Shown here in pieces: positions 25,527 through 51,225 of a stretch of DNA of 64,000 nucleotides; the stretch's first letter is position 1, and every line of letters starts with the position of its first letter. A model generated the notes under the pieces. That model did no database searches. It was not told the origin of the DNA and was given only the letters and a program-made list of their open reading frames with translations. The stretch is from IMG/VR virus record IMGVR_UViG_3300031760_000015, positions 43,641 to 107,640 of that record; one strand, given 5' to 3'. The stretch comes from a virus. Its lineage: Duplodnaviria; Heunggongvirae; Uroviricota; Caudoviricetes. A program made the position numbers and the translations under genes.

Positions 25527-25928
25527 ATGGGAAAATTAGTTGATTTAGCAATCAAACTTCGCCCATATATTGAAAAAGCTGCTGCAAATTTAAATGATAC
25601 AGATGCACTTGAAGCAATTCAATTATTTCCTAAATGGGAGCCTAATATTAAATATGAGAAAGACGATAGAGTAAGATATGAAAGTATTTTATATCGTTGC
25701 TTACAACCACATAATTCTCAAGAATCTTGGACTCCACTCGCGGCCGCAAGCCTATGGGCTAAAGTTTTAATTCCAGATGAAAATGTTATTCCAGATTGGG
25801 AACAACCTGATAGCACAAATCCATACCAAATTGGAGATAAAGTAAGATTTGAAAATAAAATTTATGAATCTGTTATAGCAAATAATATTTGGGCTCCAAA
25901 TGTTTATGGGTGGAAAGAGGTACTATAA
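25527..25928 (+). CDS. carbohydrate-binding protein with two CBM5/12-like domains
   Basis: YEKDDRVRYESILYRCLQPHNSQESWTPLAAASLWAKV matches CBM5/12 chitin-binding signature (Y..GD.V.Y.G..Y.C.Q.HTS..W.P...ALW). Confidence 0.55.
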   Translation: MGKLVDLAIKLRPYIEKAAANLNDTDALEAIQLFPKWEPNIKYEKDDRVRYESILYRCLQPHNSQESWTPLAAASLWAKVLIPDENVIPDWEQPDSTNPYQIGDKVRFENKIYESVIANNIWAPNVYGWKEVL

Positions 25929-26626
25929 TGAATAATTATAAAGTTTATTGTCATACATCACCAAACGGAAAGCGGTATGTTGGAATTAGTAATAATCCAG
26001 AAAAAAGATGGAATAATGGCAAAGGATATATTAAAAATTATTTATTTTATCGAGCAATAGAAAAATATGGTTGGAATAATTTTAATCACGAAATTTTATA
26101 TGATAATTTGTCTATAGAAGAAGCCGGAGCGATTGAACAAGAATTAATCCAAAAATGGAATTTAATGAACCCAAATTTTGGATATAATTTACGAGAAGGA
26201 GGAAATGGTAAATTTTCTGATTATTCTCGTTATTTGATGTCTAAAAATCGTAAAGGTAATACTAATTCCGTGGGCCAATATCATTCATTAGAAAATCGTA
26301 AACAAATTTCTGAATCATTAAAAAAATATTATAAAGAGCATCCTGTTCAAAAATTAGATATGACTGATAATAAAGAATATCAAAAAATTATAGCAAAACG
26401 AAAAGAACTTACTCATCAGAAACTTTCATTAGCTACTAGTGGTGCAAATAATCCTAGTGCTCGTCCTATAAGACAGCTAGATAAAGAAGGTAATTTAATA
26501 GAAGAATTTGCATATGCCACTTTAGCTGCGAAAAAATATAATATTGATTTATCTAGTATTATTAAATATTGTAGAGGTAAACAAAAAACTTGTGGTGGAT
26601 ATAAATGGGAATATGTTAATATTTGA
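25928..26626 (+). CDS. GIY-YIG homing endonuclease with NUMOD-like DNA-binding C-terminus
   Basis: YKVYCHTSPNGKRYVGIS...YRAIEKYG...NLREGG; C-terminal ...RGKQKTCGGYKWEY; start set to ATG 25928 (RBS GAGG). Confidence 0.7.
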   Translation: MNNYKVYCHTSPNGKRYVGISNNPEKRWNNGKGYIKNYLFYRAIEKYGWNNFNHEILYDNLSIEEAGAIEQELIQKWNLMNPNFGYNLREGGNGKFSDYSRYLMSKNRKGNTNSVGQYHSLENRKQISESLKKYYKEHPVQKLDMTDNKEYQKIIAKRKELTHQKLSLATSGANNPSARPIRQLDKEGNLIEEFAYATLAAKKYNIDLSSIIKYCRGKQKTCGGYKWEYVNI

Positions 26627-26651
26627 CTTCAATATAATTTTATGATATAAT
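26623..26651 (+). promoter_or_regulatory. sigma-A-type promoter TTGACT-N17-TATAAT
   Basis: -35 26623-26628, TG-extended -10 26646-26651. Confidence 0.5.
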
Positions 26652-26716
26652 AAATATATCAAAGGGAGAAAGGAATTCCTTTGAAATATAATTAAAATAT
26701 AAGGAGAGGAACTTAT

Positions 26717-27070
26717 ATGAAATTTTATTCAGATGTAACAAAGCAATTTTATGACACTGAGAAGGCTTGTTTAGAAGCTGAGTTTAAGGTAAAGGAAAAG
26801 CAAAATCGAGAAAAGATTTTACGTGAAAAGGCTGAACGCGAAGCTAAGGAAAAGCAAGAAGCTCTTGCTGCTGAACGTAAGACTCGCGCGCAGGAAGTAG
26901 AGGATGCTCGTAAAGCTATGGTAACAGCACAACATAAGTATAGTGAATTACTTGAGGTTTTCTGTAAAGATTATGGAACTTTTCATCAAACTCTAACTGG
27001 TGAAGATGCCAAGGGTATTATTCCTACTCTATTTGATATTTTCAATCCTTTATTCTTTGACTTTAAGTAA
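26717..27070 (+). CDS. coiled-coil K/E-rich hypothetical protein
   Basis: ORF track, RBS AAGGAGAGG. Confidence 0.5.
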   Translation: MKFYSDVTKQFYDTEKACLEAEFKVKEKQNREKILREKAEREAKEKQEALAAERKTRAQEVEDARKAMVTAQHKYSELLEVFCKDYGTFHQTLTGEDAKGIIPTLFDIFNPLFFDFK

Positions 27071-27121
27071 AAAATCTGGTATAATATTTATGTAAGGTTG
27101 AGGGAATACCTCACCTTATAG

Positions 27122-27194
27122 GTCATCATAGTTCAGTTGGTAGAACACTTCATTGGTAATGAAGAGGTCCCGAGTCCGATTCTCGGTGGTGGCT
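27122..27194 (+). tRNA. tRNA-Thr(GGT)
   Basis: hand-folded cloverleaf; anticodon loop TTGGTAA; T-loop TCCGATT. Confidence 0.55.
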
Positions 27195-27198
27195 CTTA

Positions 27199-27376
27199 TA
27201 GACCTGTAACAGCAATATAAAATTGGACTGTAAATCCCGAAAGATTGTGGGTTCGACTCCCACTCAGCCCCACCATTTATATGGGGCTGTGGCGCAACGG
27301 TTGACGCACGTGAAAAATTGGGTCTAGCATGTGCTGTAACGGGGAGAGGAGCACATTAATATCCCCTTTCCACCAT
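27199..27376 (+). ncRNA. E1: YACAGCAAU-motif element containing a circularly permuted tRNA-like core (T-arm + 3' acceptor CAGCCCC-A-CCA, 7-nt spacer, 5' acceptor GGGGCTG + D-arm) followed by two long hairpins
   Basis: motif TGTAACAGCAAT 27206-27216; T-arm 27247-27263; acceptor halves 27265-27271 and 27283-27289 perfectly complementary; CTGTAAC repeated at 27204 and 27344. Confidence 0.5.
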
Positions 27377-27450
27377 CGGAATGTAGCACAGTTGGTTAGT
27401 GCAATGGTCCGATAAACCAGAGATCGTTGGTTCAAATCCAACCATTCCGA
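27377..27450 (+). tRNA. tRNA-Ile(GAT)
   Basis: acceptor CGGAATG/CATTCCG, D-arm GCAC..GTGC, anticodon loop CCGATAA, T-arm GTTGGTTCAAATCCAAC. Confidence 0.7.
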
Positions 27451-27663
27451 CTTAGTATCAAATCCATCCGATATGGCTGTGGCTACAAGGTGCAGAAGGA
27501 TGGCGGTTGTCTAACGCCTATATGAGTTGAAACGATATATACTATATAGGATGAAATAAAGCAAAAAGCAAGAGAGTTAGAACACGTTAGTTTTACTGAT
27601 ATGAAAATGTAGCTGTGCTACCAGTGGCGCATACCGACATAACTTATGGACACTGGTTTATAA

Positions 27664-27737
27664 GCAGGTATAGTATAGTGGTAATACGGCTGCTTGCCAA
27701 GCAGCAATCACGGGTTCGAATCCCGTTACTTGCTCCA
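27664..27737 (+). tRNA. tRNA-Gly(GCC)
   Basis: anticodon arm GCTGC-TTGCCAA-GCAGC, T-arm ACGGGTTCGAATCCCGT, encoded CCA. Confidence 0.7.
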
Positions 27738-27850
27738 AATAAGGCTATACAGGGTTACGACTCGCGTATAGGATACCAAAAGGTAGCGCGGCGTGTGAAG
27801 AACACGTACTTTCTCGTTGGATTAGGTTGCTAATCTAACGAGAAGAATAT

Positions 27851-27926
27851 GGCCAGGTAGCTTAAAGGGTGAGAGCAACGGACTGAAAATCCGTAGAGGG
27901 TGGCTCGACTCCACCCCTGGCCACCA
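27851..27926 (+). tRNA. tRNA-Phe(GAA)
   Basis: acceptor GGCCAGG/CCTGGCC, anticodon loop CTGAAAA, encoded CCA. Confidence 0.7.
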
Positions 27927-27929
27927 TAT

Positions 27930-28001
27930 GGGTTTCTGGCGTAATGGTAGCGTAGCAGATTCTTAATCTGTCTGGTCAGGGTTCGAATCCCTGGAGACCT
28001 A
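27930..28001 (+). tRNA. tRNA-Lys(CTT), imperfect D-stem
   Basis: anticodon arm GCAGA-TTCTTAA-TCTGT, T-arm CAGGGTTCGAATCCCTG. Confidence 0.5.
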
Positions 28002-28004
28002 TTT

Positions 28005-28114
28005 TAAGACAGTTACAGCAAATTCAATTAGATTATTAGTATAGTGGATAATACATTAAACTTCCAATTTAAAAATCGTCAGTTCGACTCTGACATAATC
28101 GAAAAAACTGTCTT
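28005..28114 (+). ncRNA. E2: long-range 9-bp stem (AAGACAGTT/AACTGTCTT) + ACAGCAAATT motif enclosing an intact tRNA-Gly(TCC)
   Basis: stem strands 28005-28013 and 28106-28114; motif 28014-28023. Confidence 0.55.
28030..28102 (+). tRNA. tRNA-Gly(TCC)
   Basis: D-arm GTAT..ATAC, anticodon arm TTAAA-CTTCCAA-TTTAA, T-arm GTCAGTTCGACTCTGAC; 1-72 A/G mismatch. Confidence 0.55.
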
Positions 28115-28122
28115 GTTATTAT

Positions 28123-28194
28123 GCCGGTATAGTTTAACGGATAGAACATGAAACTTCTAATTTCAATGTCGAGGTTCAATTCCTCGTACCGGTG
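28123..28194 (+). tRNA. tRNA-Arg(TCT)
   Basis: anticodon arm TGAAA-CTTCTAA-TTTCA, T-arm CGAGGTTCAATTCCTCG. Confidence 0.65.
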
Positions 28195-28215
28195 CTTTAT
28201 TAAAAGGAGCTTAAT

Positions 28216-28341
28216 ATGATTTATTGTTATGAGTGTATTTTTTATGATTCTGAATGGGAAAGATGCCTTGAAAAAAATTTTCAATGTAAAATTAATCCAG
28301 AGGAGCATAAAAATTGCCCTTATAGGGAACATTGGAATTAA
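28216..28341 (+). CDS. small Cys-rich protein (41 aa, CYEC ... C..C) embedded in tRNA cluster
   Basis: RBS AAAAGGAG 9 nt upstream; below track cutoff. Confidence 0.35.
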   Translation: MIYCYECIFYDSEWERCLEKNFQCKINPEEHKNCPYREHWN

Positions 28342-28344
28342 TAT

Positions 28345-28434
28345 GCGGGTTTACTCAAGTCTGGTGAAGAGGTCTGATTCGAAATCAGATAGGATGTAAA
28401 AGTCGCAAGGGTTCAAATCCCTTAGCCCGCGCCA
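28345..28434 (+). tRNA. tRNA-Ser(CGA), type II
   Basis: anticodon arm TCTGA-TTCGAAA-TCAGA, long variable arm, T-arm AGGGTTCAAATCCCT, CCA. Confidence 0.65.
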
Positions 28435-28441
28435 TTAATAT

Positions 28442-28529
28442 GTAGGGTTGACCGAGAGGCTGATGGTGCTCGCCTGGAAAGCGAGTTGTCTGAAATATTG
28501 GCACACAGGTTCAAATCCTGTACCCTACG
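28442..28529 (+). tRNA. tRNA-Ser(GGA), type II
   Basis: acceptor GTAGGGT/ACCCTAC, anticodon arm CTCGC-CTGGAAA-GCGAG, T-arm ACAGGTTCAAATCCTGT. Confidence 0.65.
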
Positions 28530-28536
28530 CTTATAG

Positions 28537-28655
28537 AGTCGCTCACAGCAATTGTTCTTATAGAACATATGGGTTCAAATCCCATAATACGCACAGCGTA
28601 TTTAGCCAAATGGTCAAGGCAGATGTCTAACAAACATCCTTCTATTAAAGCGACT
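28537..28655 (+). ncRNA. E3: stem-framed (AGTCGCT/AGCGACT) CACAGCAAT element enclosing a circularly permuted tRNA (T-arm + 3' acceptor AATACGC-ACA-GCGTATT 5' acceptor + D-arm + anticodon arm with loop CTAACAA)
   Basis: T-arm ATGGGTTCAAATCCCAT 28568-28584; acceptor halves 28585-28591 and 28595-28601 perfectly complementary; no T-arm follows the 5' half. Confidence 0.55.
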
Positions 28656-28668
28656 TGTTATATTTTAT

Positions 28669-28700
28669 AAGAGTTTGATTTTAATCAAACTCTTTTTTAT
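28669..28700 (+). terminator. rho-independent terminator closing the first tRNA island
   Basis: 12-bp stem AAGAGTTTGATT/AATCAAACTCTT then TTTTTT. Confidence 0.65.
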
Positions 28701-28723
28701 ACTTCCAAAAAGAAGGTGAGATT

Positions 28724-30421: not shown

Positions 30422-30446
30422 CTTTTCCCCAAAATTATATTATAAT
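30418..30446 (+). promoter_or_regulatory. sigma-A-type promoter TTGACT-N17-TATAAT driving the 4-tRNA cluster
   Basis: -35 30418-30423, -10 30441-30446. Confidence 0.55.
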
Positions 30447-30559
30447 AAATATGTTGAGAGGATGACTGGGGAGCAACATTAAGCGGAGTCATGACCGCAC
30501 TCCTTTCCCGTGTCAATATCCTACCTTTCCACACGATAAATAAAGATGGTAGGACGCGT

Positions 30560-30639: not shown

Positions 30640-30726
30640 GCGTCGGTATGCCTAGCAGCGAGAGCACTTGGCTGTAGACCAAGTACGTTAGAAACACCGT
30701 GGGTGCAACTCCTACCCGGCGCACCA
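30640..30726 (+). tRNA. tRNA-Tyr(GTA), type II
   Basis: anticodon arm CTTGG-CTGTAGA-CCAAG, long variable arm, CCA. Confidence 0.65.
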
Positions 30727-30899: not shown

Positions 30900-33797
30900 A
30901 TGAAAAAGGGAATAGTATATTTTATACTATTGACTTTTTTATTTTTTATATTTCCAAGTTTTTCTGAAGAATTGGAAATAGAAATAGAAGAGCCAATAGA
31001 TGTTATTTTTCCAGTAGAAGAAAATGAAATAAACTTAGAAGATAATTTAGATTTAATTTCTATAAATGAACTTCAAGCTAACAATTTAGAAATACCAGAA
31101 GAACAAGAAGTAGAAATTCCAGACCTCCCAAAAGAATATAATTTTAATATAGAATTATCTAATTTAACTGGTTATTCTATTATAGCTTTAAATAATGCTT
31201 TTATTGACTCACATATTAGAGGTTCTTTATGGATTGGAAATACATTAACTAGTAATGAATGGTGCGGTTCAGACGACGGTTCAATTAATCACATACCTTC
31301 TGGAACAGAAAGTTATATATATAATAATGAATCTTCAATGTATTTTCAAGGTCGCACTGAAAATCAAAGTAAAGATGCTTATAAAAAATTAAGCGCGGCC
31401 GCAGTTGAAACTACAAAAGATTATTGGACTAATATAATAAACTCATTGCCTAACGATGAAGAACAATGGATTTATGTAAAACCTGATGAAAATGGTTATG
31501 TTAATTTAACAAAATGGGATTATCAAACTCAAGGAAGCGATGAATCCCAGGAATCTATTGAAAAAATATATTGGACAAACGCGTCTAAAGTAGATATGGG
31601 CGGCTTAGCCGGCCATTTAATTGCTCCATTCGCAGAAATTGATATTACTTGGTGTAATCATAGAGGAGCAATTGTAGGATGGAATATTACTACGCACGGT
31701 GAAGCCCATATTAATTATTGGACTCCCGAAATTATAGAGCCAACCTCTTCACCTACCGAAACACCTTCTCCAACAGCAACACCAGCTCCAGGCAAAATTA
31801 TTCTACAAAAAACATTAGTAAATGACGTTTGGCATATTCGTTGTGATGTTATGGATGGAACAACTTTCCAAGCTGGCGGCGGAATATGGAAAACTGATGT
31901 TATTATGAATCCAAATAAAAAAACAAGTAAAGAAGGACATAGGTCTAACAAATGCGGCGATGCCGACCATTGGATTATATGGTTAGATAATACAGGGACT
32001 CCATTTAGAATGGATGAAATAAAATCTGGAGCAACTGGTGGCACTTTACCCACTATGATATTTGAAGAAGTATATTCACCGCAAGATTTAGGATTTTCTG
32101 GTTGGGGAGAATTAGAACCAGAAATGACTGACAAAGTTGAATTATATAAAGAAAACTTTAAAATTCAAAAAGATATTACAACTGTAAAACCAGGAGAAAG
32201 AATATATTGGATTACTTGGAATAAAGACCAACGATGGTATCACAGTGGTGTGCCATATATTGCACCACCAACTTTTACTTTTTATATTGATGGAGAACCA
32301 TATCCTATTGTTGCTGGTAATTATCTTGAATTGGATGATGTATTGCCGGGCGCGCACGAAATTAGAGAAGATGTAAGCCTTGATGACTATATTATTACAA
32401 TATTTGGCAGTGATGAAGTTGAAGGCACAAAGTCTATAATTAATATTATAGATGGAGAAACTATAGAAGTAGAATATGTAAATGAAATTATTACTCCACC
32501 AACTGAACAACCTTCTACTCCTCCTGCACTACCTACTCCAACTCCAACATCTACACCTACAGTTGTTCCAACACCTACACCCACACCTACAGCGGTGCCT
32601 ACGATTGCTCCAACTATAAAACCAACGGATACTCCTATACCAACATCTACCCCTATTCCTACTGAAATACCCACTATAACTCCTACAGAAAAACCAACCA
32701 TACAACCAACATCTACCCCAACAATTAAACCTACTATCGCGCCAACTAAAACTCCTACTCCTACTGAAACATCACCAATAAAATCAACTGAAAATCCTAC
32801 CCCAATAGAAACTTTAACTCCAACTATTTCTCCTACGCTAGAAATAACTATAACTCCAACAATAATGCCTACGGAGGAACCTACACATGAACCAACAGAA
32901 AAGCCTACAGCAAAGCCAACACCAACTCCCAGTCCCGCACCCACTTCAATACCAGCAAGCCCAACTCCACCAACAGAGCCCAGTCCCGCGCCAACTATCA
33001 CCATCACTCCAACAGTTGAGCCCACCACAGTTCCTACAATACGACCAACTGATACACCAGTTGTTACAGCTACCCCTGGAAAGCCTAGTGAGTCTCCTCG
33101 ACCTAAACCAACACCTACCGAAACAATAAAACCTACGGAGGAGCCTACAAATGAACCGACTACAATTCCTACAGTGGTGCCGACAACAGAACCTACAGTT
33201 AAGCCTACTGCAACGTCTACAAATACTCCTACTGTGGCCCCTACCAATACGCCGCGGCCTACTCGTAAGCCAACGCTAACACCAGTAAAACCCACGAAAA
33301 CTCCAAAACCTACAAATACTCCTACTCCAACAAATACGCTAAGTATTAAACCAACAATAATTCCAACGCCAAAACCTACTAAAACCCCTGAAATTCTTAT
33401 TCCTTCATTAAAACCAACAGAAATAATACCTACTGAAACTCCTACAATTAGTCCGGCGCCAACAAGGACACCAAAACCAACCGAATTAATTATTATAGTA
33501 GATTTACCAACATTTACTCCCACACCAACTGCAACCCCAACTCCTAGACCTACAGTTCCACCCGAAGTAATAGAAGAAATTATTATTAATCCTCCACCAC
33601 CAGTTTCTAATAGACCAGATTTTTCTCAATATACTGATGAAGAATTAGAAGAATTATTTGATTTCTGGGGCTATCAAACTCCTTTATATGGTATATTCCA
33701 AACAGGTGACGAAATACCAATAGGAATAATAATAGCTGGATTGGCTGGATTATTGTGTTTAATTTTATATTTTATATTAAGAAAATATAATATTTGA
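30900..33797 (+). CDS. secreted/membrane-anchored surface protein: signal peptide, globular domain, about 350-aa Pro/Thr-rich linker, C-terminal TM helix
   Basis: MKKGIVYFILLTFLFFIFPSFS signal; PTPTPT repeats; C-terminal IIIAGLAGLLCLILYFILRKYNI. Confidence 0.65.
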   Translation: MKKGIVYFILLTFLFFIFPSFSEELEIEIEEPIDVIFPVEENEINLEDNLDLISINELQANNLEIPEEQEVEIPDLPKEYNFNIELSNLTGYSIIALNNAFIDSHIRGSLWIGNTLTSNEWCGSDDGSINHIPSGTESYIYNNESSMYFQGRTENQSKDAYKKLSAAAVETTKDYWTNIINSLPNDEEQWIYVKPDENGYVNLTKWDYQTQGSDESQESIEKIYWTNASKVDMGGLAGHLIAPFAEIDITWCNHRGAIVGWNITTHGEAHINYWTPEIIEPTSSPTETPSPTATPAPGKIILQKTLVNDVWHIRCDVMDGTTFQAGGGIWKTDVIMNPNKKTSKEGHRSNKCGDADHWIIWLDNTGTPFRMDEIKSGATGGTLPTMIFEEVYSPQDLGFSGWGELEPEMTDKVELYKENFKIQKDITTVKPGERIYWITWNKDQRWYHSGVPYIAPPTFTFYIDGEPYPIVAGNYLELDDVLPGAHEIREDVSLDDYIITIFGSDEVEGTKSIINIIDGETIEVEYVNEIITPPTEQPSTPPALPTPTPTSTPTVVPTPTPTPTAVPTIAPTIKPTDTPIPTSTPIPTEIPTITPTEKPTIQPTSTPTIKPTIAPTKTPTPTETSPIKSTENPTPIETLTPTISPTLEITITPTIMPTEEPTHEPTEKPTAKPTPTPSPAPTSIPASPTPPTEPSPAPTITITPTVEPTTVPTIRPTDTPVVTATPGKPSESPRPKPTPTETIKPTEEPTNEPTTIPTVVPTTEPTVKPTATSTNTPTVAPTNTPRPTRKPTLTPVKPTKTPKPTNTPTPTNTLSIKPTIIPTPKPTKTPEILIPSLKPTEIIPTETPTISPAPTRTPKPTELIIIVDLPTFTPTPTATPTPRPTVPPEVIEEIIINPPPPVSNRPDFSQYTDEELEELFDFWGYQTPLYGIFQTGDEIPIGIIIAGLAGLLCLILYFILRKYNI
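32500..33560 (+). repeat. low-complexity Pro/Thr(/Glu/Lys) codon repeat inside 30900..33797
   Basis: recurrent CCAAC(A/T)CC units; generates spurious minus-strand ORFs. Confidence 0.7.
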
Positions 33798-33937: not shown

Positions 33938-33939
33938 CT

Positions 33940-34376
33940 TTAGGTTCCTCCTGTAAAAATCCTTCTGTTCGCGACAGTGAAAAGGAGTGGTTGTGGCTAG
34001 TAATATAGAAAAAGCAGAATTTATATTATGTGTTCGCCATTAAAGAACGCCGGGAGTTCTCTTACCCCGTAAGGTAGTCCGGAATACACATAAGATTCGC
34101 TCGGCGATTAGATTACGTCGTAAGACAATAAGGTGTCAGTCTAGCGGAAATTGAACTCGTTAGTGTCAATCGTGTAGCATACGAATAATGCTCGCTTGCC
34201 TGCCGTGTGACCGAAGGTGAGGTACGCTGCAAACCAAGAGTAGAAATTGCAGATTAGGGAATGTGTGCTTCGCGGGCACAGGTATTCCCGCGTGAGACTC
34301 GCGGTGAAATCGAGTGGCGGCTCCAATGGATTGAGGCCCAGAAGATGCCAATAGGAGAAGAAACCGCGAGATTTAT
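33940..34376 (+). ncRNA. GC-rich (about 48%) ORF-free structured block upstream of split tRNA-Met; contains GCGGG...CCCGC...GAGACT...TAGTCC motifs reminiscent of group I intron core elements
   Basis: no ORF >30 codons in a 30% GC genome; multiple GC helices. Confidence 0.35.
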
Positions 34377-34414
34377 GGGCGTCTAGCACAGTTGGTCAGT
34401 GCCTTCGGCTCATA
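34377..34414 (+). tRNA. tRNA-Met(CAT) 5' exon (acceptor, D-arm, anticodon stem + CTCATA)
   Basis: GGGCGTC-TA-GCACAGTTGGTCAGTGC-C-TTCGG-CTCATA; 3' partner at 34869-34904. Confidence 0.55.
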
Positions 34415-34442
34415 TCAAGCAAAATCATATCTATAAATTATT

Positions 34443-34853
34443 ATGGATACAAATATTAAAGGTATTATTACCGAATTAAAATGTAAAACTTATTTTTTAG
34501 AATTGGGATATACTGTCTCAACTCCAGAAAATCCAACGAGGTATGATTTTATTTTAGACACTGGAAATAAACTTATAAAAATTCAGGTTAAAACTTGTAC
34601 TTCAGATGGAGAAAAATTAAGTTTTGCTACTTGTTCTAGTCATTTTGTAAATGGAAAAGTTACTCATACTCATTATCAAAATGATAATATTGATTATTTT
34701 TGTACTTGGTATAATAATGAATGTTATCTAATTCCTGTATCAGAGTGTGGGAAAACTGAAAAAAAATTACGATTAGTTCCCACACGAAATGGACAAGTAA
34801 AAAAAATTAGTTTTGCTAAGGATTATATTGCTAAGGAGGTTTTAAATAGATAA
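34443..34853 (+). CDS. PD-(D/E)XK-like homing endonuclease within the tRNA-Met intervening sequence
   Basis: YDFILD ... KIQVKT motifs; paralog of 50608 gene; located between the tRNA halves. Confidence 0.45.
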   Translation: MDTNIKGIITELKCKTYFLELGYTVSTPENPTRYDFILDTGNKLIKIQVKTCTSDGEKLSFATCSSHFVNGKVTHTHYQNDNIDYFCTWYNNECYLIPVSECGKTEKKLRLVPTRNGQVKKISFAKDYIAKEVLNR

Positions 34854-34868
34854 GTGAGCTAGATATGA

Positions 34869-34904
34869 ACCGAATGGTCTTGGGTTCGAGCCCCAAGGCG
34901 CCCA
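34869..34904 (+). tRNA. tRNA-Met(CAT) 3' exon (A38, anticodon stem CCGAA, variable loop, T-arm, acceptor GGCGCCC)
   Basis: T-arm TTGGGTTCGAGCCCCAA; acceptor complementary to 34377-34383; flanking GATATGA pairs with the CTCATATC end of exon 1. Confidence 0.55.
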
Positions 34905-34926
34905 TTTAATAAAAAGGAGTTATATA

Positions 34927-37056: not shown

Positions 37057-37080
37057 ATGTTTAGACAAGGAGGAGATAAT

Positions 37081-46107: not shown

Positions 46108-46195
46108 GCCGCGGTGGTGCAACTGGCGAGACACAGCAGACTTAAAATCTGCCACGCAAGATACATTACCGGTTCAAATCCGGTTCGCGGCACCA
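46108..46195 (+). tRNA. tRNA-Leu(TAA), type II
   Basis: anticodon arm GCAGA-CTTAAAA-TCTGC, long variable arm, T-arm CCGGTTCAAATCCGG, CCA. Confidence 0.6.
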
Positions 46196-46250
46196 AGGAC
46201 TACTGTTCTCACTTCATACGTCCTATATAAACATTCTAGAAGTGAATTAT

Positions 46251-46335
46251 GGGGCATTGGACTTAGGCGAACATGGCACAGCCGGCGGACTCAAAATCCG
46301 CGTCTTTCGGGGTTCGAATCCCCGATGCCCTACCA
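46251..46335 (+). tRNA. atypical tRNA-like, anticodon CAA, with about 8 extra nt in the D region (contains CACAGCC)
   Basis: acceptor GGGGCAT/ATGCCCT, anticodon arm GCGGA-CTCAAAA-TCCGC, T-arm CGGGGTTCGAATCCCCG, CCA. Confidence 0.4.
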
Positions 46336-46336
46336 C

Positions 46337-46365
46337 TTGACTTTCTTTTAAAATTATAGTATAAT
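46337..46365 (+). promoter_or_regulatory. sigma-A-type promoter TTGACT-N17-TATAAT
   Basis: -35 46337-46342, -10 46360-46365. Confidence 0.5.
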
Positions 46366-46395
46366 AATTACAGTAAAGAGAAAGGAACTAATTAA

Positions 46396-46596
46396 ATGGA
46401 TTTAATTGAACAACTTGAAACCTTACGAATTTCTGATAATGATTTTTTTGGACAAAGTTATGAAAAACAATGCGCTTATGCTCGCGCGAATGCGATGTTA
46501 GACGATTGCCTAGAAATCGTTTGGAAATGGTTATTAGATAATAATGCACTAGATAAAGTAGAATACCTTAGAAAAAGAGTTCATTTTAATACTTGA
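46396..46596 (+). CDS. hypothetical protein
   Basis: ORF track. Confidence 0.45.
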   Translation: MDLIEQLETLRISDNDFFGQSYEKQCAYARANAMLDDCLEIVWKWLLDNNALDKVEYLRKRVHFNT

Positions 46597-46621
46597 CTTA
46601 TAATAAAAAATTTGTTATAAT
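46593..46621 (+). promoter_or_regulatory. sigma-A-type promoter TTGACT-N17-TATAAT
   Basis: -35 46593-46598, -10 46616-46621. Confidence 0.5.
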
Positions 46622-46623
46622 AA

Positions 46624-46688
46624 ATATGTAAGAACGACGATTACAGCAATTAATAAGTAAACATAGCTATTGGAGTTATTTCTACTGT
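46624..46688 (+). ncRNA. E4a: stem (ACGACG/CGTCGT) + ATTACAGCAATT motif hairpin element, no tRNA inside
   Basis: motif 46632-46643 directly 3' of the stem 5' strand. Confidence 0.45.
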
Positions 46689-46702
46689 TCGTCGTGCTGA
46701 TT

Positions 46703-46777
46703 GAAATTAAAGGCGGATACAGCAATTTTATATTTTAAGTAATAATCTGTTAAATTATCGCACTTAATAATAACCGC
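46703..46777 (+). ncRNA. E4b: stem (AGGCGG/CCGCCT) + ATACAGCAATT motif hairpin element
   Basis: motif 46709-46719. Confidence 0.45.
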
Positions 46778-46786
46778 CTAGAAATT

Positions 46787-46864
46787 ATGGGCTTGTGACG
46801 TAACTTGGCAAACGTACGGCGTTTAGACCGCCGGTTCTGAAGGTTCAACTCCTTTCAAGCCCAC
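46787..46864 (+). tRNA. tRNA with anticodon TAG (Leu) but class I (5-nt variable loop), A73
   Basis: D-arm ACGT..ACGT, anticodon arm CGGCG-TTTAGAC-CGCCG, T-arm GAAGGTTCAACTCCTTT, CCA. Confidence 0.6.
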
Positions 46865-47384
46865 CAGTCACCTCCCGCTAATGTGACAACCGTTAACATT
46901 TGTTTGATAGTTTCTGTTGGAAAACGGTATATAAAGAAGCAACAGCACATATCAATCGGACGAGTTGCTACGCCGGTATGATTGAAACTATCGTGGCATC
47001 ATTGAAGAGCCTTCACGCGGCGATGCTGTTTAAACTAATCTTCAACTTGCTGGCGATTTGTCGTAAGTCAGCGCCAACCAAATATTGAAGAGCGGCCCAT
47101 CCTTTACTTGCAAGACTGTGATGGGACTTGAACCGCAAGGGAGATTTGTCGAGTCGGAACTCGTATAAGAGAAGCCGGGGTGCGCAAGAAAGCCAGGATA
47201 AGAGTTGGACCGGCCTGGATGAAAGACGTTCACTTCAATATTTAAGTTATCCGCTGACCAATATGCGGGATATAAATAGTTGGGTATAAATTAAGATATT
47301 TTAAGGTAGCATTGGTGTCATGAGCCAATGAGATAAGATGCTCCTACATCAGCTTAAAATATAAATATAAATAAAATCATAGGA
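46865..47384 (+). ncRNA. GC-rich ORF-free structured block between tRNA and HNH gene
   Basis: hairpins GTCAC..GTGAC, GCAAC..GTTGC; no convincing ORF. Confidence 0.3.
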
Positions 47385-47954
47385 GTGATTATTATGAAAA
47401 AATGGGAAAGGTTTTCTGATGAAGAGTTGCAAGAAATTGCTTATAGAAGTTCTTGCTTAGGAGACTACGCTAAAAATTTAGGCTATTCTATAAAAGGTAC
47501 TAGTGGTAATAGTGCTCGTTCTTCTGTAAAAGCAATGATTGAACTTAAACAAATAAATGTAATGCATTTTAAAGGTTATAAAGATAAATCTACACAATTT
47601 AATTATAAACATGTTAATGAAAATTATAATGTTAGTAATTTATTTATAGAAAATAGCTTCGCAGAAAGAAAACTTATTAGACGTTATTTATTAGCATATA
47701 ATTTAATTCCATATAAATGTGCTTTTTGTGGTAATGAAGGGGAATGGCGAGGAAAGCAGATTAGTTTAGAATTAGACCATATTAATGGCAAGCATAATGA
47801 TAATAGATTAGAAAATCTTCGTTGGCTTTGTCCAAATTGTCACGCTACTACTCCTACATACTGCGGTAAAAATATAACTTATCAATGTGAACAAGCCCTG
47901 TTAGCTCAGTCGGTAGAGCATTCGGCTGGTCAGATAGAAACAAGTCCTAGTTGA
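47385..47954 (+). CDS. HNH homing endonuclease
   Basis: CAFCG ... DHINGKHNDNRLENLRWLCPNCH; 3' end overlaps tRNA-Thr exon 1. Confidence 0.7.
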   Translation: MIIMKKWERFSDEELQEIAYRSSCLGDYAKNLGYSIKGTSGNSARSSVKAMIELKQINVMHFKGYKDKSTQFNYKHVNENYNVSNLFIENSFAERKLIRRYLLAYNLIPYKCAFCGNEGEWRGKQISLELDHINGKHNDNRLENLRWLCPNCHATTPTYCGKNITYQCEQALLAQSVEHSAGQIETSPS

Positions 47955-48020
47955 GTGCAAGACTCAAATCTGGCACCATTAACCGAAGTGTCGGCAGTTC
48001 AAGTCTGTCACAGGGCGCCA
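47895..48020 (+). tRNA. tRNA-Thr(GGT) interrupted by a 50-nt insert in the anticodon loop (insert 47931-47980, between nt 36 and 37)
   Basis: acceptor GCCCTGT/ACAGGGC, D-arm GCTCAGTCGGTAGAGC, anticodon stem TTCGG/CCGAA, T-arm GGCAGTTCAAGTCTGTC, CCA; insert folds into CAGAT/ATCTG and TTGAGT/ACTCAA helices. Confidence 0.55.
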
Positions 48021-48095
48021 GCCTGAGCAAATGTGGAAAGTCGTATGTGCGGTTAGCTGACCTTAAAGCTATTCTAATCTAGAGGAGAATAAAAT

Positions 48096-48635
48096 ATGGA
48101 TAATGTACGTTTAAAGATTCTACCACCTTGGACAATTGTAATTCGTAAGTTTGAGGCTCTATTTGATGGTGACCCACAAATTGCTTGTAATTGTAACTTC
48201 AATGGTTCTAATCCTTCTATTGTTCTTGCTTGTAATAATGGCGATAAGGTTGCCGCACTCCAGAAGATTCTTCCTTCTGATATCTCCTTCGGCAATGTGA
48301 AGTTGAACGTTGTCGTGGATGGTATTCCTTCCAATCGAGCTTTTACTAGCAAGGTAGAATTATTTGATATCGCTTTTAAGGGCAATCCAGCATACGCTTA
48401 TTCTGTGTGCCCAGCTGAAGATGGTTATATGTGGATTGGAACTACTTATGTAGTATTTAAGAATTGTGTTGTACAGTTCGCCGCAGATAATCTAAATGAT
48501 TGCCACGGTATCATTAGCACTCTATATCAAACTATCGCAGAAGAACTTCTACGTGGTGAAGCTACCGAAGGTGTTTTCTATAATACTGATGTAGAGCGCG
48601 CAAATCTTGGTAAGCCTCTAGGTGAGTGGCCATAA
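48096..48635 (+). CDS. hypothetical protein with GC-biased codon usage
   Basis: ORF track; RBS GAGGAG. Confidence 0.5.
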   Translation: MDNVRLKILPPWTIVIRKFEALFDGDPQIACNCNFNGSNPSIVLACNNGDKVAALQKILPSDISFGNVKLNVVVDGIPSNRAFTSKVELFDIAFKGNPAYAYSVCPAEDGYMWIGTTYVVFKNCVVQFAADNLNDCHGIISTLYQTIAEELLRGEATEGVFYNTDVERANLGKPLGEWP

Positions 48636-48648
48636 TCCACTCAATTAT

Positions 48649-48723
48649 GACCCTATGGTGTAGTTGGTCTAACATATTAGCCTGTCACGCTAAAGATCAC
48701 GGGTTCAAATCCCGTTAGGGTCG
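48649..48723 (+). tRNA. tRNA-Asp(GTC)
   Basis: acceptor GACCCTA/TAGGGTC, anticodon loop CTGTCAC, T-arm ACGGGTTCAAATCCCGT. Confidence 0.65.
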
Positions 48724-48726
48724 CTT

Positions 48727-48850
48727 TTAGACTCAGCCAGCATATTTTTTACTTACGCATTGAGGAGCGAGTAGCATTGGTTCGAATCCAATTCTTCCCA
48801 CTATATGGGAAGATAGTGTAATGGTAGCACGCTTAATAGTATGAGTCTAG
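48727..48850 (+). ncRNA. E7: stem-framed (TAGACTCA/TGAGTCTA) element with degenerate motif (GCCAGCATAT) enclosing a circularly permuted tRNA-like core (T-arm + 3' acceptor TCTTCCC ... 5' acceptor GGGAAGA + D-arm)
   Basis: T-arm ATTGGTTCGAATCCAAT; acceptor halves perfectly complementary; D-arm GTGTAATGGTAGCAC. Confidence 0.45.
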
Positions 48851-48856
48851 TTTTAT

Positions 48857-48933
<77 letters not shown>

Positions 48934-48934
48934 T

Positions 48935-48963
48935 TTGACATCTTTTCAAAATTCTGTTATAAT
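48935..48963 (+). promoter_or_regulatory. sigma-A-type promoter TTGACA-N17-TATAAT
   Basis: -35 48935-48940, -10 48958-48963. Confidence 0.5.
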
Positions 48964-48993
48964 ATATACAGAAAGAATGAAAGGAATATAATT

Positions 48994-49218
48994 ATGAAAG
49001 AAGTATTAAACGCAAACAAAGCCAAAGCAGAATTTGTAAAATCAATTCATAATTGGTTAATGCGTACTCTTGAACAAAATAATAAAACAGAATATAAAAA
49101 TTGTTTTACTATTGAAGGTTCGAGTATTATGTGTGAGCTTCCTACTGATTATTTCAATTTATTTGATATTCCCGCAGGAACAAAAATTGAAATGAAATTT
49201 ATTTCTAAGAAATCTTAA
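48994..49218 (+). CDS. hypothetical protein (74 aa)
   Basis: ATG behind GAAAGGAA; the track ORF start overlaps tRNA-Pro. Confidence 0.45.
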   Translation: MKEVLNANKAKAEFVKSIHNWLMRTLEQNNKTEYKNCFTIEGSSIMCELPTDYFNLFDIPAGTKIEMKFISKKS

Positions 49219-49221
49219 TAA

Positions 49222-49313
49222 TAAGCCTTTACAGCAATTTTTAAATGGTTAAATTATTTTGTTTAAAGTACAGAGTAAGAGAAGGTTCGAGCCCTTCATA
49301 ATTAAAAGGCTTA
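49222..49313 (+). ncRNA. E5: 9-bp stem (TAAGCCTTT/AAAGGCTTA) + ACAGCAATTT motif element containing a T-arm-like hairpin (GAAGGTTCGAGCCCTTC)
   Basis: motif 49231-49240; T-arm-like 49281-49297. Confidence 0.45.
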
Positions 49314-49319
49314 GTATTT

Positions 49320-49396
49320 GCCGGTTTAGCTTAGTTGGTTAAAGCACTCGCCTTGTAAGCGAGAGACCTTCGGTCCGAATCCGAAAACCGGCCCCA
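49320..49396 (+). tRNA. tRNA-Thr(TGT)
   Basis: acceptor GCCGGTT/AACCGGC, anticodon arm CTCGC-CTTGTAA-GCGAG, T-arm TTCGGTCCGAATCCGAA, CCA. Confidence 0.7.
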
Positions 49397-49414
49397 CTTA
49401 AAAGGAGTAGTAAA

Positions 49415-49864
49415 ATGGGATTTTTTAATCGGTCTAAGAATACAAAAACAGAAAATTTAGAACTTAAACCGGTATCGTCTCCGTCAAAAAAATGTAATCA
49501 TAAATTTCAAGATTTTCCTTGGTATGTAGAAGGAACAGAAAATGATGATATTTATTCTAGACATTGGTATCATTTAACTATCAAAGAACCGTATGTTTGT
49601 ATTTATTGCGGAGAAAGACAAGATAAAATATTATGGGAAATAAAGCGTTATGGTCCACATAAAGAAGCAATACAAGGTTTAGATGATATTAATGAAAAAT
49701 TTAAAGACCATATTAGGCATCGTGCTGAAATTGAAGATATGATAAATGATATGCAATTAGTTGATCCACAATATTTACAATATTATCATATGCTTCAAGG
49801 AACTAAAGACCCATCTACTTCAAGACTATATGAAAAAGAAATAAAACCAAAATTAAAAGTTTAA
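49415..49864 (+). CDS. hypothetical protein (contains CIYCG Zn-ribbon-like motif)
   Basis: ORF track. Confidence 0.5.
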   Translation: MGFFNRSKNTKTENLELKPVSSPSKKCNHKFQDFPWYVEGTENDDIYSRHWYHLTIKEPYVCIYCGERQDKILWEIKRYGPHKEAIQGLDDINEKFKDHIRHRAEIEDMINDMQLVDPQYLQYYHMLQGTKDPSTSRLYEKEIKPKLKV

Positions 49865-49866
49865 TT

Positions 49867-49986
49867 TATGCGGTCACAGCAATTTTAGATATTAATCTAA
49901 GTGTCATCGGTTCGATTCCGATTATTCCAGCCATTTAATTTGGAGTGTAGCTCAATTGGTAGAGCATTAGACTTTATAACCGCATA
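49867..49986 (+). ncRNA. E6: 8-bp stem (TATGCGGT/ACCGCATA) + CACAGCAATT motif enclosing a circularly permuted tRNA (3' anticodon-stem strand TCTAA, variable loop, T-arm, 3' acceptor TATTCCA-G-CCA, spacer, 5' acceptor TGGAGTG, D-arm, 5' anticodon-stem strand TTAGA)
   Basis: T-arm ATCGGTTCGATTCCGAT 49906-49922; encoded CCA 49931-49933; D-arm GCTCAATTGGTAGAGC 49950-49965; no T-arm downstream of the 5' half. Confidence 0.6.
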
Positions 49987-50002
49987 GTACAAATATTTAT
50001 AG

Positions 50003-50061
50003 AGACTCTTTCAGCAAAAGTAAATTTATAAGTCCTTACATTATAAAAAGAATATGAGTCT
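50003..50061 (+). ncRNA. stem (AGACTC/GAGTCT) + degenerate motif TTTCAGCAAAAG hairpin element
   Basis: same arrangement as E2-E9, motif diverged. Confidence 0.3.
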
Positions 50062-50075
50062 TGTAATTAAACTTT

Positions 50076-50176
50076 AAGTCCGTTACAGCAATTTTATATA
50101 AAAATTTAGAATTAATTTAATATGTTGGTTTATTAAAAATTTTGAAAATTTATTGATACGGACTTGATTTTTTTAT
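50076..50176 (+). ncRNA. E8: 8-bp stem (AAGTCCGT/ACGGACTT) + TACAGCAATT motif element with AT-rich loop, followed by a T-run (terminator-like)
   Basis: motif 50084-50093; T-run 50168-50176. Confidence 0.45.
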
Positions 50177-50191
50177 TTGAAAGGTTAAAAT

Positions 50192-50551
50192 ATGAATGAC
50201 GCAAATTATGAATGGCTTTTTCTAATTCCTGAAGGTTGGGTACAGATTGCTCAACAAATGATTGAAGAATGTGAAGCTATCAATCCTTCTTATCAAATTG
50301 AAGATTTAAAAGAAAAATGGGGAGAATTGCGCGTTGTTAGTTATATTAAAGACTACAATGATACTGAATGGCTTCTTCCCGCCTCCAATGATAAAGAAAT
50401 AGAAGAAATAGAAAATAAATATATAGAACAAAGTCGTAAAACTTGTTGCATTTGCGGCAAATCTGCTACGAAAATATCTACTGGTTGGATTTGTCCTTAT
50501 TGTGATGATTGCGGAGATAAGGATGAGAGGTTTTATAAAAGGTTTAAATAA
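50192..50551 (+). CDS. Cys-rich (CCICG ... CPYCDDCG) hypothetical protein
   Basis: ORF track. Confidence 0.5.
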   Translation: MNDANYEWLFLIPEGWVQIAQQMIEECEAINPSYQIEDLKEKWGELRVVSYIKDYNDTEWLLPASNDKEIEEIENKYIEQSRKTCCICGKSATKISTGWICPYCDDCGDKDERFYKRFK

Positions 50552-50587
50552 GGCGGGTTAAGCCTAATGGTAAGGCAGGAGATTGCT
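50552..50587 (+). tRNA. tRNA-Ser(GCT) 5' exon
   Basis: GGCGGGT-TA-AGCCTAATGGTAAGGC-A-GGAGA-TTGCT; partner exon at 51251-51309. Confidence 0.5.
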
Positions 50588-50607
50588 TTTTTACTTAATT
50601 AAACTTA

Positions 50608-51225
50608 ATGGTAGAAACAAAGATTAAAGGGCTTACGACAGAATTATTATGTCAGGCATATCTTACTTCTTTAGGATATAATATTTCTATTCCTATTGGC
50701 GAAGATTGTAGATATGATATGATTCTGGATTTAAATGGAAAACTTTTGCGTATACAAGTTAAAACTTGTCAAGAAGAAGAAAATAGAATATCTTTTCGTA
50801 CTTGTAGTATTACAACATCCGGAAAAGAAAATATTATTCATAAATATACTAAAGACCAAATTGATTTAATAGCTACTTATTATAATGACCAATGTTATTT
50901 AATTCCAATTGAAGAATGTGAAGGAATGAAAGGTAGAAGTTTAGTTTTTTCACCAGAAAAAACAAATGCTATTAAACCTTTATATATTAAAGATTATACA
51001 GCAGAAATCATTTTAAATAAAATCCTTAATAATGAACAAATTAAAAAGGAGGATGATTTTATTGTGTATCAATATGATTTAAATAATAACTTACTTAATC
51101 AATTTTCTTCATACGCAGAAGCAGGAACTTCCATTAACAAACCTTCTAGTCATATAAGTCAATGTGCTAGAGGATTAAGAAAAACCGCATATGGTTTTAT
51201 TTGGTCATTAACATTAAAGGATTAA
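50608..51225 (+). CDS. PD-(D/E)XK-like homing endonuclease with NUMOD-like C-terminus, inside the tRNA-Ser intervening sequence
   Basis: YDMILD ... RIQVKT; C-terminal ...CARGLRKTAYGFIWS; paralog of 34443 gene. Confidence 0.45.
   Translation: MVETKIKGLTTELLCQAYLTSLGYNISIPIGEDCRYDMILDLNGKLLRIQVKTCQEEENRISFRTCSITTSGKENIIHKYTKDQIDLIATYYNDQCYLIPIEECEGMKGRSLVFSPEKTNAIKPLYIKDYTAEIILNKILNNEQIKKEDDFIVYQYDLNNNLLNQFSSYAEAGTSINKPSSHISQCARGLRKTAYGFIWSLTLKD

Follow-up and report, generated by a model that had tools for sequence, protein, structure and literature searches.

The tRNA islands of a virus assigned to Caudoviricetes, known from record IMGVR_UViG_3300031760_000015, hold five homing-endonuclease genes of three families. 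The stretch of DNA analyzed, called the window here, is 64,000 nt long and covers positions 43,641 to 107,640 of that record. The genes carry the working names GIY1 and GIY2 (two GIY-YIG genes), HNH (one HNH gene), and PD1 and PD2 (two PD-(D/E)XK genes of the I-Ssp6803I type), and numbers prefixed by L designate the viral contig loci that were compared. Families were assigned from Pfam profiles with curated cutoffs, from PHROGs and, for PD2, from a modelled fold, while tRNA genes were called with ARAGORN and Rfam. All five open reading frames (ORFs) were verified at their coordinates, on the plus strand. A sequence-only reading of this DNA had proposed the same three families and their clustering in the tRNA islands, and both proposals are borne out: Pfam searches recover GIY-YIG, NUMOD1, NUMOD3, HNH and PDDEXK_5 domains, and the proteins encoded at 34443 and 50608 belong to a nuclease family, PF11645. 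Also as proposed, three of the genes touch tRNA genes, PD1 lying in a tRNA-Met and PD2 in a tRNA-Ser, with HNH overlapping a tRNA-Asn. The ORFs of the window include no extra paralogues of these three families, other endonuclease families not having been screened exhaustively, and no close relatives were found among deposited phage genomes. Judged from the alleles compared, all five nuclease genes are mobile. The presence/absence polymorphism that the earlier reading suggested looking for was seen for each of them among related phages, which either lack the gene or have a different one at the site.

Taken by itself, the set of five genes is ordinary, homing endonucleases in phage tRNA clusters being familiar. 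Two features had gone unremarked. The PD genes are the cargo of tRNA introns too small to contain a ribozyme. Next to the HNH gene lies a tRNA gene with a mini-intron that itself resembles a tRNA. The unusual point is that a known family of tRNA-targeting endonucleases sits in introns without a ribozyme; tRNA introns other than self-splicing ones are not known from bacteria.

PD-(D/E)XK genes in introns between tRNA nucleotides 36 and 37

PD1 (34443-34853) encodes a protein of 136 amino acids with no added DNA-binding domain, and PD2 (50608-51225) one of 205 amino acids in which the nuclease is fused to NUMOD1 (31.6 bits against a cutoff of 22.8, E 2e-7). Their scores against PDDEXK_5 (PF11645), which has a cutoff of 26.1 bits, are 84.9 bits for PD1 (E 7e-24) and 85.6 bits for PD2 (E 4e-24), and the two proteins are 43% identical. 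By phmmer, PD2 matches the I-Ssp6803I structure, PDB 2OST, with an E-value of 5e-6, and PD1 with 0.019. The catalytic residues E12, D37, Q50 and K52 (E/D/QxK) are invariant in 24 aligned family members that include PD1 and PD2. An AlphaFold model of PD2 (pLDDT 90) has chains A-D of 2OST as its best Foldseek matches (E 3.6e-9, target-normalised TM 0.76), followed by Hjc resolvases. By family membership, then, PD1 and PD2 are predicted homing endonucleases of the I-Ssp6803I type. The PD2-type family comprises 116 metagenome protein clusters, nearly all with the PDDEXK_5 plus NUMOD1 architecture; a pattern scan for the PD domain across 185,579 representative bacterial and archaeal genomes found none, yielding NUMOD-only matches.

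With default settings, ARAGORN reports 26 tRNA genes in the window, none of which overlaps a nuclease gene, and overlooks three that are interrupted. When introns are allowed all three are found, and tRNA halves flank the PD ORFs on both sides. For tRNA-Met(CAT), exon 1 (34377-34413) supplies the acceptor 5' strand, the D arm, the 5' strand of the anticodon stem and nucleotides 32-36. An intron of 454 nt (34414-34867) follows at position 36/37, consisting of 29 nt, the PD1 ORF and 14 nt, and exon 2 occupies 34868-34905. For tRNA-Ser(GCT), exon 1 (50552-50587) precedes an intron of 652 nt (50588-51239), again at 36/37 and made of 20 nt, the PD2 ORF and 14 nt; exon 2 (51240-51297) contributes the long variable arm, the T arm, the acceptor and CCA. 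All of these features lie on the plus strand. Removal in silico of 34414-34867, of 50588-51239 and, in the tRNA-Asn treated below, of 47929-47978 lets ARAGORN recognize Met(cat), Ser(gct) with its class II arm, and Asn(gtt). The predicted exon-exon junction sequences are TTCGGCTCATAACCGAA for Met, GGAGATTGCTAATCTCC in the full Ser context, and GCATTCGGCTGTTAACCGAAGTGTCGGCAG for Asn, which has a phage-specific T arm. An alternative reading of the PD2-interrupted tRNA as Gly(GCC) was rejected on account of the class II variable arm, which identifies it as Ser.

Non-coding sequence amounts to 43 nt (29 plus 14) in the PD1 intron and 34 nt (20 plus 14) in the PD2 intron. Group I introns of bacterial tRNA genes range from 184 to 894 nt (PMC13011429), so that with 34-43 nt outside their ORFs the PD introns cannot hold a group I ribozyme. 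No Rfam intron family was matched, whether the region was searched at gathering threshold or the introns alone at E-values up to 10, and no P7-like motif, the guanosine-binding element of group I introns, was found in the window. The mini-intron of tRNA-Asn, 50 nt in all, likewise falls far below the roughly 180 nt of a group I catalytic core (P3-P9).

Loci in which to look for recurrence of this arrangement were fetched by protein similarity alone, from unrelated contigs. Homologues of PD1, at 65-90% identity, occur in tRNA-Met(CAU) at the same position in three of four viral contigs (L081, L083, L084). Genes of the PD type also interrupt Ser(GCU) in L085-L087, L090 and L103, Ser(UGA) in L105, Thr(UGU) in L104 and L106-L108, Asp in L114, Pro in L200, and Gln in L109, where the protein has another C-terminal domain. 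One more occurs in Asn, in L155, a partial locus that includes only the 5' junction. The recurrent PD introns always lie between nucleotides 36 and 37, contain nothing but the ORF, and affect at least seven tRNA species.

A common structural rule accompanies the common position. The terminal 6-10 nt of the intron are complementary to the anticodon (nucleotides 34-36 or 35-36) together with the first bases of the intron. In the Met intron of the window, the 3'-terminal 6 nt, GATATG, find their complement in the anticodon CAT followed by intron nucleotides 1-3; in the Ser intron the helix GCTTTTTT/AAAAAAGC pairs the anticodon and 5 intron nucleotides with the 3' end of the intron. This rule was tested on 14 loci from seven tRNA species, chosen by protein homology and not by pairing. 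The first six pairs are present in 11-14 of the 14 loci, and pairing extends to 76% of all cells; sliding the partner gives 33-45%, and none of 500 shuffles equals the observed figure. On the sense strand G-U combinations exceed A-C ones by nine to two, an excess that points to RNA structure. As a prolongation of the anticodon stem, the helix has the 3' splice site at its base and the 5' splice site 3 bp further in.

The exons, meanwhile, look like those of working tRNAs. They are intact, with four paired stems, T33 and a purine at 37, in 13 of about 17 loci from seven tRNA species, and their stems vary between phages by compensatory or G-U-compatible changes.

Alleles without the intron are available for comparison. 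An uninterrupted tRNA-Met lies between tRNA-Trp and tRNA-Cys in L196 and L202, identical to the exons of the window except in and beside the anticodon stem, and the anticodon stem of the window matches that of intron-bearing alleles in distant phages. A difference confined to the surroundings of the anticodon stem is what homing with co-conversion should leave behind. The tRNA-Pro of L200 bears a PD intron that the tRNA-Pro of the window lacks.

Three further observations concern these introns and their genes. Within the non-coding 5' segment of the Met intron (34414-34442), a second copy of TCATATC occurs 12 nt downstream of the copy at the junction, as it does in L081 and L084. Both copies can serve as partner of the intron's 3' end; for L083 the internal pairing alone is good. 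The doubled motif may act as a switch between alternative helices. Longer tRNA introns, of 176-690 nt and with P7-like AAGATATAGTCC and variants, occur in L205 (17364-17789), L183 (1388-2169), L193 (1165-1467) and L278 (3887-4153). Finally, the PD2-type ORF of L085-L087 has an in-frame TAG at codon 3, read as Q in the database protein, and tRNA(CTA) suppressor genes are present in relatives (L204, 12085-12174; L206, 4918-4991; L207, 13555-13628). Recoding of TAG is thus probable for some members of this phage group.

A minihelix intron in tRNA-Asn

The HNH gene (47385-47954, with a likely ATG start at 47394) encodes a protein with an HNH domain (24.3 bits, cutoff 21.4, E 3e-5) that matches PHROG 10822 at E 6e-41. 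Its ORF overlaps the first 60 nt of tRNA-Asn(GTT), the last 20 or so codons crossing exon 1 and the stop codon falling inside the mini-intron. On the plus strand, exon 1 (47895-47928) runs through G34, the mini-intron (47929-47978) is 50 nt long and lies at position 34/35, and exon 2 (47979-48020) runs from T35 to an encoded CCA. Rfam scores 47895-48017 as a tRNA at 51.8 bits, with a 54-nt insertion in the anticodon loop. ARAGORN calls this tRNA Thr(GGU), which was rejected in favor of Asn(GUU) on the basis of synteny, of the boundaries set by the minihelix, and of the D and anticodon arms, which are 95-97% identical to those of common tRNA-Asn genes.

The mini-intron begins with one strand of a 7-bp acceptor-like stem, GTCAGAT/ATCTGGC, followed by a 15-nt linker and a T-arm-like hairpin, TTGAG-TGCAAGA-CTCAA. 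The ATCTGGC strand continues directly from the hairpin, and ACCA forms the final four bases of the intron. As RNA it reads GUCAGAU...AUCUGGCACCA, about 50 nt in all, and by itself it folds into a minihelix. In its predicted structure the tRNA-Asn mini-intron is thus an acceptor/T-arm minihelix, of the kind that serves as a model substrate for RNase P.

Six further minihelix introns were found, in Glu(UUC), Leu(UAA), Thr(UGU), Ile(UAU), with two kinds, and Gly(UCC). The seven distinct sequences are 44-88 nt long and show 96% pairing, and all seven acceptor pairs covary. Their hairpins have invariant pairs equivalent to G53-C61 and an A-T closing pair, equivalents of C56, A57 and A58 in a 7-nt loop, and the ACCA end; position 55 is G in two of the seven. 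Boundaries drawn by the minihelix restore the loops CTTAAAA and CTTTCAA, which are those of the intron-less Leu(UAA) and Glu(UUC) orthologues in the window. The same rule gives CTGTTAA for Asn, which fits the synteny with L199 and L200 and yields an anticodon arm found in more than 120 viral contigs. One Glu intron occurs between exons whose anticodon stems differ by a compensatory pair, TTGGC/GCCAG in one case and CCGGC/GCCGG in the other.

The site next to tRNA-Asn is variable. Copies of the HNH gene at 98-99% identity are present in L182 and L202. In L199 a GIY-YIG gene takes the slot 5' of tRNA-Asn, and the tRNA-Asn behind it is intact; in L200 the slot contains neither nuclease. Several of the other tRNAs with minihelix introns have an HNH or GIY-YIG gene alongside, and relatives of the HNH protein are encoded in or beside tRNA introns with a group I P7-like motif, as in L183 and L193.

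Another kind of tRNA insertion, of about 45 nt, was seen in L081 (1506-1630), L084 (2273-2390 and 3899-4031) and L083 (42-163). These insertions have in common a hairpin followed by CGAC(A/T)GCAAT, and seem to be placed at the anticodon stem or loop on its 5' side, not within the anticodon. One of the tRNAs that host them has the anticodon TTA, an ochre suppressor.

Proposed splicing of the interrupted tRNAs

We consider it probable that the window presents five mobile nucleases in tRNA islands, ribozyme-free PD introns and a minihelix intron, with the interrupted tRNAs presumably spliced by proteins. Within each locus sequence, the interrupted tRNA is the sole copy of its isoacceptor, except for Met, for which several CAU species are usual. 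The canonical exons, the compensatory changes in their stems and, Met apart, the lack of a second isoacceptor copy make the interrupted tRNAs look functional, and functional tRNAs of this kind would have to be spliced by proteins. For the three tRNAs of the window we propose, rather than demonstrate, protein-dependent excision followed by sealing by a ligase.

A more specific scheme, which we regard as possible but somewhat doubtful, has tRNA end-processing excise the minihelix introns, a duplex-cutting nuclease excise the introns at 36/37, and a phage ligase join the halves. Because its tRNA-like ends fall exactly on the splice sites, the mini-intron would be released there, RNase P acting at the 5' end and a second, endonucleolytic cut following CCA at the 3' end. 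For the PD introns the helix suggests a nuclease able to cut both strands, at points 3 bp apart, and the PD-(D/E)XK enzyme that the intron itself encodes may be this nuclease; the superfamily to which its fold belongs also takes in the archaeal splicing endonuclease (PMC3424549). Either route would yield 3'-OH and 5'-phosphate ends, which the ATP-dependent RNA ligase of the phage would seal. RNase III is an unlikely agent for the PD introns, with splice sites staggered by 3 nt (5 nt at the alternative Met junction) and not by 2, and the logic of RNase P and RNase Z was rejected for them, as they have no T-arm or CCA. Inspection found no bulge-helix-bulge motif in either class: the exon-intron helix of PD introns runs unbroken from the anticodon stem, and the 7-bp stem of the mini-intron starts at the splice site.

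The candidate sealer of the tRNA halves is encoded in the window at 41746-42396 on the plus strand (PF09414, Pfam E 3e-17). It is distant from Rnl2 and DRB0094, and its NCBIfam matches are weak. The ligase is present in all loci L195-L209, but it served as the query by which these were collected, and its presence there shows a widespread family and no independent association. It belongs to a cluster of RNA-repair type, 37057-42396, together with DUF5662, PTH2, a Ro-like DUF2828/DUF7788 vWA protein and cREC_REC, a cyclic-phosphate-processing receiver domain (40356-40721, plus strand, Pfam E 8e-17).

Several observations weigh against protein splicing or against parts of the scheme. We know of no bacterial or phage enzyme that cuts at these sites, and of none assigned to a cut exactly after CCA that leaves the 3' exon intact. 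Among the PD loci, the anticodon arm is absent from L088 and L089 and the 5' half of L082 is truncated, as in decay, while in L102 (1192-1930) a PD2-type gene stands free before an intact tRNA-Ser(GCT), overlapping its first 10 nt. The ligase is not among the top 80 matches on the contigs of L081-L084, leaving its link to the introns unproven outside this clade. At gathering threshold Rfam also overlooked the introns of L183 and L193, presumed to be group I from their AAGATATAGTCC-type P7 motif; introns of this sort easily escape notice, and the Rfam negative is therefore weak and the size argument carries the case. The minimum-free-energy fold of the whole Asn precursor, at -41.3 kcal/mol, is lower than the -35.6 kcal/mol of the proposed structure, and the minihelix set was chosen in part by a filter that demanded pairing, though not the invariant bases.

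The lack of known bacterial machinery for such introns, and the decayed or rearranged loci just listed, would suit another account, in which the PD insertions did no more than break up tRNA genes that the phage can spare. The halves would then be young pseudogenes, with a helix that stabilizes or processes the mRNA of the selfish gene inside a highly transcribed tRNA operon. The window does have a second tRNA-Met(cat), at 42714, and homing with co-conversion can supply intact-looking exon flanks without selection. This account leaves poorly explained the 13 loci with intact exons across seven tRNA species, the compensatory or G-U-compatible substitutions in their stems, and the local lack of an intact second copy of the interrupted isoacceptor. 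Furthermore, the 3' end of the intron tracks the neighboring anticodon, which stabilization of an mRNA alone would not need. We think disruption of dispensable genes unlikely, although it deserves to be taken seriously. Self-splicing by an overlooked compact or novel ribozyme, located partly in the ORF or in adjacent GC-rich blocks, strikes us as very improbable. It could appeal to the poor sensitivity of Rfam and to the conserved GC-rich non-coding blocks that adjoin all three interrupted tRNAs. Against it stand the few non-coding nucleotides of each intron relative to the group I minimum, the missing P7-like motif, and the character of the ORFs, which are AT-rich coding sequence conserved as protein. 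As for the blocks, their folding z-scores are -0.6 to -1.2, and block B1, 89% identical in L202 and 83% in L196, is equally conserved in these relatives without the intron, for which reason it was rejected as an intron-specific part of a ribozyme.

For the 50-nt insert in tRNA-Asn, one may ask whether it is a scar or an immunity insert that protects against HNH cleavage, leaving the tRNA non-functional or a decoy, its shape having been copied from a tRNA during repair. The insert splits the anticodon itself at 34/35 and has a free-standing endonuclease gene as its neighbor, the layout of collaborative homing, and the fold of minimum free energy, without the minihelix, and the unassigned 3' cut tell in the same direction. 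Yet a 7-bp stem has been kept by covariation, along with T-arm hallmarks, through seven sequences in six tRNA species, and each minihelix starts at the first nucleotide of its intron and ends, with ACCA, at the last. The exons of the tRNA are canonical, it is the only tRNA-Asn in the window, and the exon stems around the Glu intron differ by a compensatory pair. A scar is on this evidence improbable, and excision of the minihelix as an intron is the reading that we retain.

If protein splicing is true, it would be the first protein-dependent pathway of tRNA splicing in a bacterial system, and it would account for the tRNA introns of megaphages that have been termed "enigmatic". Functional tRNAs of this kind would mean that phage RNA ligases do more than repair, and would bear on the origin of protein-spliced introns from mobile self-splicing ones. 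Standard tRNA finders overlook the interrupted genes (3 of about 30 in the window), which means that the tRNA repertoires of phages are undercounted.

Free-standing genes, neighboring features and known systems

GIY1 (25928-26626, plus strand) is a free-standing gene between g25527 and the promoter of g26717. Its GIY-YIG domain, at 22.8 bits, is barely above the cutoff of 22.6, and is followed by NUMOD3 and, at the C-terminus, by a weak I-HmuI_NUMOD-like match that remains below threshold (15.4 against 27); the protein falls in PHROG 314, "homing endonuclease", at E 4e-29. The gene corresponds to an indel of about 700 bp that only the window and L210 carry among some 60 relatives whose flanking genes abut. 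GIY2 (43971-44612, plus strand), likewise free-standing, combines GIY-YIG (47.1 bits, E 3e-12) with NUMOD1 (29.9 bits, cutoff 22.8, E 6e-7), and both proteins match PHROG 314 at E <1e-28. It is part of a cassette of about 750 bp inserted directly 3' of the discriminator base of tRNA-Ala (43818-43892), and its ORF begins 79 nt past that tRNA; neither GIY-YIG gene overlaps any tRNA. The cassette is a clean indel relative to L202, with copies at 99% identity in L198 and L203. Alleles with GIY2 have a tRNA-Ala without encoded CCA, while the empty allele keeps it (window 43880-43895 against L202 9930-9945). GIY1 and GIY2 would be Seg-like intergenic cassettes that use phage tRNA islands as landing sites.

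The sequence-only reading had noted a NUMOD-like C-terminal module common to the two GIY-YIG proteins and PD2, and had taken it to suggest shuffling of domains between nuclease families within this genome. The common module stands. The C-termini of PD2 and GIY2, both NUMOD1, are 42% identical over 57 amino acids (E 3e-10), including the motif RG(K/L)RKTAYGF(K/I)W, which GIY1 carries more weakly. The shuffling does not. Fusion of PDDEXK_5 to NUMOD1 is kept across about 100 clusters down to about 35-40% identity, and is therefore far older than this phage genome. The NUMOD modules closest to that of PD2 are found in unrelated viral contigs, at up to 61% identity compared with 42% for the module of GIY2, and relatives of the PD proteins differ at the C-terminus, PD1 having no added module and the L109 protein a zinc ribbon together with a helix-turn-helix. 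This is a pattern of long-term modular evolution, already known for homing endonucleases and reportedly described by Sitbon and Pietrokovski in 2003 (cited in PMC3943268). By these comparisons the NUMOD1 of PD2 and GIY2 is a DNA-binding module of ancient origin and in general use among homing endonucleases, and we give hardly any credence to its recent exchange between the GIY-YIG and PD-(D/E)XK genes of this genome.

Other features of these loci are recorded here. In L102, a copy of the 10 nt of tRNA-Ser that the free-standing PD2-type gene overlaps (GGAGCGGTAA) lies upstream of the gene, as from insertion with a short duplication. The GC-rich non-coding blocks of the window are 440-640 nt long and lie between tRNA genes (33939-34376, 45469-46107, 46867-47384, 51298-51773). 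They are conserved in related phages, have no match in Rfam and are candidate structured or processed RNAs. The blocks at 33939-34376, 46867-47384 and 51298-51773 were also considered as trans-acting or split ribozymes and rejected, having no mutual similarity and no significant folding. A full-length match to drum RNA (RF02958) at 43192-43303 scores 70.8 bits against a gathering score of 43, and is contained in a conserved non-coding block, 77-96% identical in L197-L203, between tRNA-Met and tRNA-Glu. A sub-threshold match to YrlA, a Y RNA-like family, was obtained at 30.6 bits beside a tRNA-like sequence (49898-49972). At 51600-51695 lies a tRNA-like element, called by neither ARAGORN nor Rfam, with a Leu/Tyr-type D arm GGCGGAATAGGTAGACGC, the hairpin GTAAGG-TGCAAAT-CCTTAC, a 6-bp acceptor and an aberrant anticodon region. 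Rfam but not ARAGORN finds an additional tRNA at 30640-30723 (38.2 bits), and the tRNA-Phe(aaa) called by ARAGORN at 49235-49305 is weak in Rfam (20.9 bits). The N-terminus of a 965-amino-acid protein encoded at 30900-33797 resembles a signal peptide, and Pro/Thr-rich repeats make up about 450 of its residues; the other strand bears a long spurious ORF as a result, and the GC skew is locally reversed.

The closest known counterpart of the PD introns is the intron with I-Ssp6803I in tRNA-fMet of Synechocystis PCC 6803, a 655-nt self-splicing group I intron (PMC1995217). The position of the cyanobacterial intron is 33/34 (PMC13011429). The two systems have the same family, fold and catalytic E/D/QxK residues, both place the gene inside the anticodon loop of a tRNA beside the anticodon, and the target in both is the naturally palindromic anticodon stem-loop. 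The phage introns differ in lying at 36/37, in having no ribozyme, in being phage-borne, and in occupying at least seven tRNA species, and many of the phage PD proteins add NUMOD1 or another DNA-binding domain.

SegB of phage T4 and other Seg and Mob proteins are free-standing homing endonucleases whose genes are preferentially inherited. SegB and tRNA loci are also treated in PMC13096335. The arrangement of GIY1, GIY2 and HNH fits theirs, being free-standing, in a phage tRNA cluster and polymorphic; the lineage of phage and the host are other ones, and GIY2, placed exactly at the 3' end of tRNA-Ala, has deprived that gene of its encoded CCA. For collaborative homing the example is F-CphI, said to have been described by Zeng, Bonocora and Shub in 2009 beside an ORF-less group I intron in cyanophage psbA. 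HNH and the tRNA-Asn mini-intron have the same layout, in which the intron would shield the allele from cleavage and be co-inherited, but the intron of the window is 50 nt long, lacks a ribozyme and lies in a tRNA. In Patescibacteria, HNH genes occur in group I introns at 35/36 of tRNA-Asn(GUU) (PMC13011429). There too an endonuclease of the HNH family is tied to the anticodon of tRNA-Asn, but the HNH gene of the window lies outside the intron, which is a 50-nt minihelix at 34/35.

The literature searched contained nothing on ribozyme-free, endonuclease-bearing tRNA introns of phages, and the only related report found concerns Lak megaphages, whose tRNAs have "enigmatic" introns, one of which perhaps itself encodes a tRNA (bioRxiv 10.1101/356790). 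Those introns are likewise short, conserved and non-classifiable, with alleles that have and lack them; they belong to Prevotella phages, and the report gives no structural rule, mechanism or link to an endonuclease. Protein-spliced tRNA introns of archaea and eukaryotes (PMC4090602, PMC3424549) have a bulge-helix-bulge and depend on the EndA/Sen endonuclease and a ligase. Their resemblance to the phage introns lies in being short, in sitting in the anticodon loop and pairing with the anticodon, and in requiring both kinds of enzyme. The phage introns have no bulge-helix-bulge, lie at 36/37, 34/35 or 35/36 and not at 37/38, and would be expected to leave a 3'-OH and a 5'-phosphate in place of a cyclic phosphate and a 5'-OH. 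To our knowledge, bacteria have no EndA. In the processing of mascRNA from MALAT1 and in mitochondrial tRNA punctuation, tRNA-like elements are excised by RNase P and RNase Z. An embedded tRNA-like fold sets both cut sites there, as is proposed for the minihelix intron, but the flanks are not rejoined, whereas ligation would be required here, and the process would then be splicing.

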